Shown piece by piece: positions 5,310-8,204 of a stretch of DNA of 64,000 bases. Made by a program: the position numbers and the translations under genes. The stretch comes from Methanobacteriota archaeon (lineage in GTDB: Archaea; Thermoplasmatota; Thermoplasmata; SG8-5; JAGLSY01): the NCBI GenBank assembly GCA_020697715.1, contig JAEHCO010000006.1, positions 1-64,000 on the forward strand, read 5' to 3'. Position 1 is the stretch's first letter; every line of letters starts with the position of its first letter. Under the pieces are notes generated by a model. The model did not search any database and was not told the origin of the DNA. It worked only from the letters and a program-made list of their open reading frames with translations.

Positions 5310-6233
5310 TTATTTATCATTCACATATTCAGCCAGTGCCTTCTTGGTCGAATGCCATACCCTTCCTATCTTGACAGCGTCCAGTTTTCCCTGCCTTGCT
5401 CTGAGGCTTAGGTAATCCTGAGAATATGGAGAGTCTTTGGCCAGTTCTTTCAATGGTATTAGCTCATCCTCACCCCCGAATATTGATAGGTAGATGGTCA
5501 GTGATTCGATCACAGCCTTAGCAATCATACTAGTGAAAGGCTTAAGATTACCCATATCTGCCTTTCTTAAGAAATCATAATATCTCATTCGATCCTCCTT
5601 ATTTAGGACTATTGGAGGATATCCTTTTTTCATGAGATACAGATTTGTCAACAGCCTAGCGACTCTACCATTACCATCTGAGAATGGATGGATCTCAACG
5701 AATCGATGGTGTAAGTAGGCGGCTATAATCACATCATGGTTTTTCATTTTTTTGACTTTATCCAACATCCCGCCCATAAGGATTGGAACCTCTGAAAAAT
5801 CGGGCGGATTCTTAACAGCCCCAGTTATCATAACGTTAGTAGTTCTGTAAATCCCGTGATCTTTCAGAATACCCCATGTGACCAGATCATGAAGTGTCAA
5901 AACACCGGCATGAGTTATTGGTATTGGATTCTTGGCCATATCCTCCAGAAGATCGAATGCCTTGCCATTACCAGACACCTCTAAATGTTCCAAGATAGAT
6001 TTACCGCCTATGGTCATTCCTTCCTCAAGCACGAGCTTGGTTTCCTGAAGCGAGAGAGTATTTCCCTCTATCGCATTAGAATTGTATGTATGTATGATCC
6101 GCATATCATTCTGAAGCCTCTTCAAGGCATCTGCTGGTAGTGGCCTTCTGGAATCGAGTAATTTCTTTTTCTCATCCAACCGTTTAATTAGATTTTCATC
6201 CATGAACGTATCGGTATCGGTAATTTTCATCAT
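5310..6233 (-). CDS. Fic-family protein with C-terminal HTH-like DNA-binding domain
   Basis: Fic motif HPFSDGNGRVAR, N-terminal SNAIEGN motif, C-terminal YSQDYLSLRARQGKLDAVKIGRVW. Confidence 0.92.
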   Translation of the reverse strand: MMKITDTDTFMDENLIKRLDEKKKLLDSRRPLPADALKRLQNDMRIIHTYNSNAIEGNTLSLQETKLVLEEGMTIGGKSILEHLEVSGNGKAFDLLEDMAKNPIPITHAGVLTLHDLVTWGILKDHGIYRTTNVMITGAVKNPPDFSEVPILMGGMLDKVKKMKNHDVIIAAYLHHRFVEIHPFSDGNGRVARLLTNLYLMKKGYPPIVLNKEDRMRYYDFLRKADMGNLKPFTSMIAKAVIESLTIYLSIFGGEDELIPLKELAKDSPYSQDYLSLRARQGKLDAVKIGRVWHSTKKALAEYVNDK

Positions 6234-6330
6234 TAGCCGATATGAGAGTCATGATATATATTGGTATCGGTATCGACTATTTCTGATAGTTGCCGATACG
6301 TGATGATGTCGCGAAAGAGAGTGAGAAATA

Positions 6331-6560
6331 GGCCAGGTGAAAGTAGTGGAGTAATCTTCACTGGTACGATGAATGTAGGCGATAACTCTACTCTATCCTC
6401 CATGCACATTACTGAGATCCCTTCACTGAGATATTGAATGAAAACGGGGGGCCAGGTCAAGGTAGTGAAGTAATCTTTACTGGTACGATGAATGTAGGCG
6501 ATAACTCTACTACCTCCACCTTTTGCAGAGATGTAGTAAAGAGCCAGGTGGAGGTAGTAA
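6331..6560. repeat. Direct repeats downstream of rnpB that echo its 3' end
   Basis: ~62-bp near-identical units at 6331-6392 and 6450-6511. Both begin with gccaggt..gtagt, matching the rnpB terminus at 6543-6558. Confidence 0.85.
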
Positions 6561-6865
6561 GCCCCATTCTGTTTCTAAGCAGCATTCAACTATGCGTCCT
6601 ACCTAATTTGGACTTGCACCGAATGGGAGTCGCCGTTTCATCATTTCCGAACCTTCGTAGCTCAGGGTCAACACCCATCATCGCTCCAGCCCGGCTGTGT
6701 CGTTTCTGCGCCCTTGCCATGCCTCTAAGCATACCGGCTTGAACCGGTCATTCATGTTTCACCCAAGAACACCGAAATGTCTCGGGTGGGAGTGGGGACT
6801 TTCCTCGGTTGGCTTCAGCAAGCGAACTTGCTTCAGCCCCCGTTAGCCGCTCACCTTCTCCTGGC
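6543..6865 (-). ncRNA. rnpB: RNase P RNA
   Basis: Minus strand has GAGGAAAGUCC, GCAGAAAC, UGAAAC, GGUGCAAG and ACAGAAUGGGGCUUAC. Termini GCCAGGAGAAGGU / ACCUCCACCUGGC pair as P1. Confidence 0.95.
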
Positions 6866-6981
6866 ATATGACCAATGAGCATGGGGATATAAAAAACCAA
6901 CGCACGTTTTAGAAATAAGGGCTTGGGGATATTTTAATAAAGAGAAGCTATTTCTGGGTTTGATATAAAGGAATGATTATT

Positions 6982-7368
6982 ATGTCATGGCAACAAGCTG
7001 AAGTAAGGACTCTGAAAGTAGGTAGATACGTCATAATAGACGACGTGCCCTGTAAGATCACAGCTTACAGCGCATCCAAGCCAGGCAAGCACGGTGAGGC
7101 TAAGGCCAGGGTGGAAGGCGTGGATATTTTTTCAGGACAGAAGAAGAGCTTCGTGAGTCCAGTTACTCATAAGATCAAAGTACCGATGATCGACAAGAGG
7201 GGCGCACAGATAATTGCGAAACAGGGCGAGGAAGTTCAGTTGATGGACCTCGAATCCTATGAGATGTTCAATGTTCCGATCCCAGAGGAATATGCGGATT
7301 CACTGGAACCAGGAAAGGAAGTCCAGTACCTCATAGCGATGGATAGGAAAAAGATCACCAAAGTGTGA
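6982..7368 (+). CDS. eif5a: Translation factor aIF5A/eIF5A
   Basis: Hypusine loop SKPGKHGEAK. Confidence 0.97.
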   Translation: MSWQQAEVRTLKVGRYVIIDDVPCKITAYSASKPGKHGEAKARVEGVDIFSGQKKSFVSPVTHKIKVPMIDKRGAQIIAKQGEEVQLMDLESYEMFNVPIPEEYADSLEPGKEVQYLIAMDRKKITKV

Positions 7369-8204
7369 ACATGAAATTCGCGGATGCTGATTCTGATTTT
7401 GATAGTGCTGAATTTATAATCTTTGGCGCTCCGATAGACATATCTGGCAGCCATAGGCCTGGATGTGGTCTGGCTCCGGATGCTATTCGTAAAGAATCTT
7501 TTAATTTCGAGACCTACCTTTATGATCTTGAAGTGGAGCTCATACAGGTCAGCATATACGATAAGGGAAATTTTGATTCTCCTTCCGAAATAGAGAAGGT
7601 CAGCCGCGAGATAACTTCTGCTGGCAAGTTCCCACTGGCCATGGGTGGCGAACATTCTATCTCGCCTCACATAATTTCCGGATTCGACAAAGAAGATCTA
7701 TCTGTTCTGGTCTTAGACGCACACCTGGATTTCCGTGATTCCTATGAAGAGGATAAGAACAGCCATGCCTGCGCGACCAGACGCATATCGGAGATCGTGG
7801 GTGTGGAGAATGTCGTTCCTATCGGAATTCGTTCCATCTGCTCCGAGGAGCTGGAGGATGCGAGAAAAGCCGGTTTGACCTATCTCACAGCCGATGCTTT
7901 CCGTGAGAATGAGCTATCTGTTCTCCTTACCTATCTGGACGGCCTATTATCAGATAAGATCTACATATCACTGGACATGGATGCCATCGATCCATCTCAT
8001 GCCCCGGGAGTTGGCACACCCGAACCCTTTGGACTCACGCCCCTGATGGTCAGGGACATCGTACGCCATTTCGCAGACAGGATAGTGGGGTTCGACGTGG
8101 TCGAGGTATGCCCGCCAGTTGACAATGGCAATACGTCCGCACTGGCTGCCAAGCTGATGAGGGATGTTATCGGCGTGGTCTCGAAGGCCAAAGACACGGA
8201 TTAG
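7365..8204 (+). CDS. speB: Agmatinase
   Basis: GGEHS, DAHLD, SLDMDAIDP, APGVGTPEP ureohydrolase motifs; overlaps the eIF5A stop. Confidence 0.93.
   Translation: MNMKFADADSDFDSAEFIIFGAPIDISGSHRPGCGLAPDAIRKESFNFETYLYDLEVELIQVSIYDKGNFDSPSEIEKVSREITSAGKFPLAMGGEHSISPHIISGFDKEDLSVLVLDAHLDFRDSYEEDKNSHACATRRISEIVGVENVVPIGIRSICSEELEDARKAGLTYLTADAFRENELSVLLTYLDGLLSDKIYISLDMDAIDPSHAPGVGTPEPFGLTPLMVRDIVRHFADRIVGFDVVEVCPPVDNGNTSALAAKLMRDVIGVVSKAKDTD

Follow-up and report, generated by a model that had tools for sequence, protein, structure and literature searches.

Identification of an archaeal RNase P RNA gene

We identified the gene of an archaeal RNase P RNA on the minus strand at positions 6543-6865 of the window, by which we mean the whole 64-kb stretch of DNA that was analysed. 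The Rfam family RF00373 (RNaseP_arch) matches positions 6546-6862 (-) over its full model (1-288) with 135.2 bits (E-value 8.8e-38), compared with a gathering cut-off of 84 bits, and it is the only Rfam family that exceeds its gathering score anywhere in the window; this agrees with the first-pass annotation of the locus. According to a genome-wide search with RF00373, the gene is present as a single copy in the 2.12-Mb, 94%-complete genome. The match is flanked by GCC on its 5' side and by GGC on its 3' side, and these two triplets, which are invariant in 12 of 12 relatives, pair with each other and extend P1 by 3 bp. Because the flanks are both invariant and paired, the span 6543-6865 that had been proposed is the most likely one. 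The minimum fold of the whole RNA (-122 kcal/mol, z-score -2.96, with none of 100 shuffled sequences being as stable) shows the extended P1, P3, an extra hairpin, P8 and P9. The features of the locus, listed in the 5' to 3' direction of the RNA, are as follows.

6887-6896 (-): TATA-like box TTTTTTATAT, its centre ~26 nt upstream of the G that opens the GCC flank
6543-6865 (-): RNase P RNA gene, ~323 nt including the 3-bp P1 extension (RF00373 match plus GCC/GGC flanks)
6806-6842 (-): P3, elongated and two-part, 37 nt; internal loop symmetric (UGAA/UGAA), tip closed by UUCG (whole-RNA fold)
6789-6799 (-): P4 5' strand (6793-6799) and P5 5' strand CUCC (6789-6792) (11-RNA alignment)
6760-6788 (-): additional hairpin in the position of P5.1, with a 12-bp stem, a single bulged U and a UUCG loop (minimum-free-energy fold, covariation)
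6754-6759 (-): single-stranded linker AAACAU from the hairpin to P7, identical in 9 of 11 aligned RNAs
6719-6753 (-): P7 5' strand (6749-6753), P8 hairpin (6733-6748) and P9 hairpin (6719-6732) (covariation)
6626-6718 (-): specificity domain with P10/11, CR-II, CR-III and P12 (full Rfam model aligned; P12 covaries)
6614-6625 (-): P7 3' strand CAUUC and P5 3' strand GGUG, contiguous, then a CAA linker to P15
6596-6613 (-): P15 GUCC/GGAC with the 10-nt terminal loop L15 AAAUUAGGUA, GGU at 6601-6603 (Rfam alignment, covariation)
6543-6595 (-): P15-P2 linker and the 3' strands of P2 (6578-6583), P4 (6561-6566) and P1 (6543-6555)
6505-6521 (-): arm downstream of the gene that can pair with the final 17 nt of the RNA, the P1 3' strand (RNAfold, -30.3 kcal/mol)

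The TATA-like box is a putative promoter element, and A/T-rich boxes can be read at a comparable distance upstream of the RNase P RNA in relatives. At the other end, a T-rich tract directly follows the conserved trailer GGCAC in most relatives. The 17-nt downstream arm lies ~22 nt past the 3' end of the RNA and pairs, with one G.U, within 6543-6562; matching arms are found in three other genomes (G003, G012 and G013) and at the metagenome loci L143 and L146, despite differing P1 sequences. The T-rich, terminator-like tract sits in the loop between the P1 3' strand and this arm. The arm may lie outside the mature RNA; if transcribed, it would out-compete P1.

Downstream of the RNA, at 5310-6460 (-), a 75-aa open reading frame (ORF) with no Pfam match overlaps the gene for a 307-aa Fic/DOC-family protein (65.6 bits), and the two form a possible antitoxin-toxin module. 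Divergently from the RNA gene, at 6973-8204 (+), a gene for aIF5A (IF5A-like_N and eIF-5a domains) is overlapped by an arginase-family, agmatinase-like gene, a combination that is usual for the supply of hypusine/polyamine. The plus strand also has a 102-aa ORF (6434-6742), which runs antisense across the RNase P RNA gene and is almost certainly spurious. A weak partial match to PIN_5 was also seen at G000:C11:455788-455931 (-), within a 162-aa open frame (29.3 bits versus a cut-off of 27, model positions 142-190 of 205).

Secondary structure of the RNA

We drew the secondary structure from the Rfam alignment and by reading the sequence, and then scored it on 11 RNAs aligned with MAFFT, namely 10 of the 12 RNAs recovered from the order (G008 and G006, which have larger inserts, were omitted) and that of G037 from family f19. 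In this alignment 91.1% of the 847 cells are paired, versus 34.7-48.9% after displacing the 3' partners by 1-3 columns, and 27 of the 87 pairs show changes on both sides; in 500 shuffles, neither the pairing nor the covariation score nor the count of cells with double changes was ever as high as in the real alignment. Compensatory changes were found in P2 (four of six pairs changed on both sides), P4 (three of six), P7, P9, P12 and P15; in the last, 100% of the cells pair and one pair differs on both sides. With nine sequences as the seed we also made a covariance model, and its search against 99 sources gave 92 matches with 86 distinct rows. In the resulting model-fitted alignment of 92 RNAs, which is biased toward the structure used to build the model, P8 and P9 each have changes on both sides in five of five pairs. 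The catalytic core is complete, with all conserved regions aligned to RF00373, and the specificity domain is full.

Most helices lie where the first-pass annotation had drawn them: P7 (GAAUG/CAUUC) was placed correctly, P8 and P9 are present, and all three covary among relatives. P5, however, had been read as CACU/GGUG, a register shifted by two; the true P5 is CUCC/GGUG, whose second pair is a U.U mismatch in 9 of the 11 sequences, and the A that was earlier assigned to P5 covaries with the P4 3' strand (UA in five, CG in four and AU in two of the 11). The P3 region comprises 31 nt, compared with nine in the Rfam consensus, and this elongation resembles the P3 expansion that the accessible text of PMC12974513 ties to protein binding. 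The UGAA/UGAA internal loop of P3 might form tandem G.A pairs, and long P3 helices occur in relatives as well.

Loss of the P16-P17 arm and of the P6 pseudoknot

P15 is a short hairpin, GUCC/AAAUUAGGUA/GGAC, as had been noted from the sequence, and no P16 or P17 lies distal to it, either in the RF00373 alignment, where 28 model positions are replaced by 1 nt, or on reading the sequence. Since there is no P17, no P6 pseudoknot is possible. In type A RNAs of the same class the arrangement is GUCC-AAAC-[P16-P17, 45-52 nt]-GGUA-GGAC, and comparison with this layout indicates that P16 and P17 were removed cleanly, leaving both L15 strands fused as a terminal loop. The absence of P15.1 reported by the first-pass annotation is likewise borne out: only 12 nt separate P15 from the P2 3' strand, and P15.2 and P18 are absent too. 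P19 is also missing, and there is no insert at P10, so there is no P10.1.

The GGUA motif in L15 pairs with the 3'-CCA end of tRNA, and the loop of the window RNA retains GGUA. In three species of family f4 (L021, L022 and L023) and at the metagenome locus L143, L15 is cut to 5-6 nt (GAUAA, GAUAUA, GUAUAA or GUAUAU) and the GGU is gone, with the hairpin after P5 being retained. CCA stands at or beside the called 3' end in at most ~5 of 31 predicted tRNA genes, the others running into T-rich tracts, and the GGU of L15 may be of little importance in this genome.

An extra hairpin between P5 and P7

Immediately after the last P5 pair comes the hairpin CACCCGAGACAU-UUCG-GUG(U)UUCUUGGGUG, followed by AAACAU and P7. 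This extra hairpin of ~12 bp at 6760-6788, which had been folded by eye, is the minimum-free-energy fold of its own segment (-16.1 kcal/mol, z-score -2.8), forms again when the whole RNA is folded, and covaries. The equivalent segments of five relatives fold alike, giving six of six with z-scores from -1.7 to -6.4. The stem pairs vary in sequence while pairing is kept, as in CAGGUGG/CCACCUG, CAGGCAG/CUGCCUG, CAGACAG/CUGUCUG, CAGGCUC/GGGCCUG, CGUAUCC/GGGUACG and CUACG/CGUAG. In the 11-RNA alignment three of the five outer pairs are changed on both sides, with the G021 and G037 rows scored as unpaired here owing to a MAFFT shift by one column. In the model-fitted alignment all seven pairs have changes on both sides and 96.2% and 93.1% of the cells are paired, 55-72 of the 86 distinct rows being gapped at the hairpin, as these RNAs do not have it. 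A MAFFT alignment of isolated hairpins lost the register of the stem and was left out of the analysis.

Stem length varies between 5 and 12 bp, with two tiers in f2 and f3, and the loop sequence varies as well (UUCG, YUAU, GAUAUUG, GAUUUA and others); this variability speaks against a single precise tertiary contact. A three-way junction joins P5, the hairpin and P7: the hairpin follows P5 without a linker, 4-6 nt separate it from P7, and the 3' strand is continuous (CAUUC|GGUG). Exactly at this site, 7-12 nt are left unpaired in the type A RNAs of the class, among them the 5' strand of P6, and by this alignment of layouts the hairpin occupies the former site of that strand. We also considered two known motifs for the hairpin and rejected both: it lacks the tandem G.A pairs with a 3-nt bulge of a K-turn, and the bulge-helix-bulge motif of an intron-like element was not seen.

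Distribution in the order, the class and beyond

Twelve of the 22 species genomes of the order yielded an RNase P RNA, and all twelve RNAs have both the hairpin and the short P15. The 10 genomes with no match are mostly incomplete, but two of them (G005 and G009) are 92-94% complete, and the claim of an order-wide design is based on the 12 genomes. The RNAs of the order score 127-157 bits with RF00373, while other full-length matches in the class mostly score 164-232 bits.

In the class sample as a whole, 128 of 151 genomes, a tally that includes the unpublished genome G109, gave a match. We read 66 RNAs from 27 families and classified their arms and hairpins by eye; an automatic parse of the P5/P7 region in 121 RNAs was noisy, with its anchor off by one, and the reading by eye was used instead. 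The families fall into three groups.

Full P15-P17 arm, 14 families: f6, f7, f8, f9, f11, f12, f13, f16, f18, f20, f21, f24, f26 and f28
Reduced arm with a hairpin between P5 and P7, 6 families: f1, f2, f3, f4, f19 and f29
Reduced arm with no such hairpin, 7 families: f5, f15, f17, f22, f23, f25 and f27

Thus, P16, P17 and P6 are lost to graded extents in 13 of the 27 families, in which P15 is bare or carries a short P16 stub, and only six of these 13 have the hairpin. As the other seven do without it, the hairpin is not required after the loss of P6. FtsZ identity is 72-75% within the same order, 67% for f22, 66% for f29, 64% for f17, 60% for f19 and 58% for f8, but FtsZ is a single protein with paralogues and is too weak a marker to tell a single origin of the hairpin from multiple ones. 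Some genomes of the class have two RNase P RNA matches (G141 with L117 and L118, G024, G043, G104 and G129). The two RNAs of G141 are both full-length and differ, one having a P16 stub and the other a bare 5-nt L15; this pair may be due to contamination of the bin or may be a true second copy.

A scan of 185,579 species genomes for the pattern of the short P15 hairpin returned 68 stretches, some of which are chance matches in bacteria. It recovered the same RNA design in metagenome-assembled genomes (MAGs) titled Methanomassiliicoccales, Thermoplasmata, Thermoplasmatota or Methanobacteriota archaeon, and also returned many MAGs of Woesearchaeota, Micrarchaeota and Nanoarchaeota. In one Woesearchaeota RNA (L079:2935-3047 (-)), P5 (CGCC/GGCG) is followed with no linker by the hairpin CCAGG-AAAAUC-CCUGG, the linker AAGU and P7 (GGCCA/UGGCC), and P15 is GUCC-AAAA-GGAC; this layout indicates that the design recurs outside Thermoplasmata. 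Bare P15 hairpins together with a hairpin directly after P5 were also noticed in the Woesearchaeota MAGs L037 and L051. In public sequencing runs, at most 0.19 of the sampled words of the stretch were found, and the contigs were short fragments of relatives.

Protein partners and the possible role of the hairpin

Profile searches show that the genome encodes Rpp29 (67.5 bits), Rpp21 (56.1 bits) and Pop5 (43.0 bits). The Pfam model of Rpp30 found nothing in the genome, but it passes its cut-off in none of 41 genomes of the class and is hence uninformative. Judging from these genes and from the conserved RNA core, the enzyme probably works as a standard archaeal ribonucleoprotein, in which the RNA would be the catalytic subunit of a protein-rich RNase P that removes the 5' leaders of pre-tRNAs.

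The reading that we favour, and hold to be probable rather than secure, is that of a normal archaeal RNase P whose RNA is of type A but has lost P16, P17 and P6, and in which the order-wide hairpin most likely serves as a strut in place of P6. In the course of events that we propose, the deletion of P16 and P17 would have abolished the P6 pseudoknot and closed the L15 strands as a terminal GGUA loop, and the stretch between P5 and P7, the former source of the P6 5' strand, would have become a stable hairpin. The two changes would be linked, and would have been fixed across an uncultured order of Thermoplasmata. The hairpin would fill space and stiffen the corner between P5/P7 and P15 that P6 formerly held, either alone or through Pop5-Rpp30, and it would be a positional analogue of the P5.1 of type B, acquired independently and lacking the partner P15.1.

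It is less likely, yet deserves serious weight, that the hairpin is a neutral expansion segment with no role of its own, tolerated since five protein subunits hold the fold. The variation of its length and loop and its absence from 7 of the 13 reduced families are what this reading leads one to expect, and the accessible text of PMC12974513 attributes the tolerance of archaeal deletions to stabilisation by proteins. However, a segment under no constraint sits poorly with a hairpin that is kept with compensatory changes in 12 of 12 RNAs from four families of the order, and with the fixed geometry of the junction, where the P5-side linker is absent and 9 of 11 RNAs have AAACAU before P7. Hairpins at the same site in f19, f29 and the Woesearchaeota MAG without P16/P17 also speak against it.

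We regard as rather improbable a stronger claim, namely, that the loss of P6 is compensated by the new P5/P7 helix contacting P15/L15, possibly loop to loop, as a convergent "lateral clamp" defining a fourth archaeal type. If this were true, hairpins at the same site in other archaea with no P16/P17, including the Woesearchaeota MAG, would mark a general evolutionary rule.

The specific form of such a contact, a kissing interaction in which the hairpin loop pairs with L15, functionally replaces P6 and ties P15 to the P5/P7 junction, is more doubtful still. At least four contiguous Watson-Crick pairs between the two loops can be formed in 6 of 16 RNAs, involving five different complementary 4-mers, whereas 1.3 RNAs are expected from shuffling; six or more were reached in only 0.1% of 2000 letter shuffles, and just 7.6% of non-cognate loop pairs reach four. 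A metagenome scan for further members gave six loci, three of which contributed new loop pairs. However, 10 of the 16 RNAs fall below four pairs, the window RNA having only two, and when G-U pairs are allowed the excess vanishes (6 observed versus 5.8 expected). The test was moreover post hoc, on the same data that suggested the pattern and on sequences that are related and hence non-independent; a stem of 5-12 bp is hard to fit with a fixed distance between the loops; and the metagenome locus L143 breaks a loop match that is present in a close relative.

Finally, we give practically no credence to the idea that this is a true type B RNA, or another bacterial RNase P RNA gained by lateral transfer. 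Only the hairpin at the P5.1 position and the terminal L15 loop with GGU speak for it. Against it, the archaeal model RF00373 is matched from end to end, a search of the genome with the type B model RF00011 gave no hit at E <= 10, the RNA lacks P10.1, P15.1, P15.2 and P18, the genome encodes archaeal protein subunits, and the relatives form a graded series from archaeal type A.

RNase P RNA is a classic example of a ribozyme whose architecture changes under a constant function, and bacterial type B is the well-studied swap of the P6 pseudoknot for another brace. If the hairpin is indeed a strut in place of P6, this order would be an archaeal example of such a swap in an enzyme already held together by five proteins, and it raises the testable question of whether the RNA's own brace is still needed when the proteins are present. 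These RNAs score 40-100 bits below their neighbours with the standard model, and tools for annotation or structure typing that are limited to types A, M and T will mislabel them.

Comparison with known RNase P RNAs

Archaeal type A is defined by P6, P16 and P17, type M lacks P8, and type T lacks most of the specificity domain. The RNA described here agrees with none of the written definitions of the three types, as the first-pass annotation had proposed. According to the part of PMC13462272 (August 2026) that is accessible, the archaeal classification still comprises types A, M and T only.

RF00373 is the best-scoring family for the window RNA, and sister orders carry the canonical type A form. 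The comparison with the archaeal and the two bacterial Rfam models (RNaseP_arch, RNaseP_bact_a and RNaseP_bact_b) that had been suggested gave a full-length archaeal match in which P16, P17 and P6 are missing. The bacterial type A model reaches 28.5 bits at the RNase P RNA locus, compared with a cut-off of 100. Like the type A RNAs of Methanothermobacter and Pyrococcus, the window RNA has P1-P5, P7-P12 (P8 among them), P15 and all conserved regions, its P10/11-P12 is interrupted, and it keeps both L15 strands (AAAU...GGUA); unlike them, it lacks P16, P17 and P6, and has a terminal L15, the hairpin between P5 and P7, and an elongated P3. On this comparison of sequences it is best described as derived from archaeal type A; the class to which it belongs contains all degrees of P16/P17 reduction.

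Type M, found in Methanococcales and Archaeoglobus, lacks P8, L15, P16, P17 and P6, according to the portions of PMC1874661 and PMC7191817 that we could access. The window RNA shares with it the lack of P16, P17 and P6, but has a 5-bp P8 and an L15 with GGU, and the P10/11 of type M is uninterrupted. It differs from type T in its specificity domain, which aligns in full at 6626-6718.

The accessible text of PMC12974513 (PNAS 2026), in which 298 archaeal RNAs were helix-mapped, reports that P6, often together with all of P16 and P17, was lost recurrently in several archaeal lineages, generally with no new helices accompanying the loss, and argues that the deletions are tolerated because proteins stabilise the RNA. 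The RNA described here has the same deletion in a similarly protein-rich enzyme, but differs from the deletions covered by that text in an added, covarying helix throughout one order. The main text of PMC12974513 mentions neither Thermoplasmata, Methanomassiliicoccales or DPANN nor an archaeal helix at the P5.1 position, and our literature search found no paper on the RNase P RNA of these groups; the archaeal hairpin between P5 and P7 is thus undescribed in the accessible text, although the supplementary per-lineage maps of PMC12974513 may show it. Hence, the deletion itself has been described before as recurring, while its pairing with the gain of a hairpin was not found in print.

A further comparison is with bacterial type B. 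From the accessible parts of PMC7191817 and PMC5066622, its hallmarks are P5.1, P10.1, P15.1 and P15.2, with the L5.1-L15.1 contact as the key strut, and P5.1 is listed for bacterial type B alone in the 2010 table of PMC2858038, as far as that source could be seen. In Bacilli, according to what is accessible of PMC12974513 and PMC5066622, the loss of P6 coincided with the appearance of P5.1, a helix that forms a bridge to the catalytic domain. Like the type B RNAs of Bacillus and Mycoplasma, the window RNA has lost P6, P16 and P17, has a hairpin branching between P5 and P7, and has L15 as a terminal loop with GGU. On the other hand, it lacks P10.1, P15.1 and P15.2, its specificity domain and its protein set are archaeal, and, as P15.1 is missing, the L5.1-L15.1 contact of type B has no partner here. 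The type-B-like architecture suggested by the first-pass annotation therefore holds for the hairpin position and the terminal GGU loop, but not for the other hallmarks or for RF00011; similarly, the suggested convergent structural class stands in so far as the resemblance to type B is convergent, though limited, whereas the RNA itself is derived from archaeal type A. The correspondence of the hairpin to P5.1 is positional only, homology being excluded by the phylogeny. As the neighbouring orders have full P15-P17 arms and scores of 164-232 bits, the sequences indicate that the loss of P6, P16 and P17 and the gain of the hairpin took place within Thermoplasmata, independently of the Bacilli.
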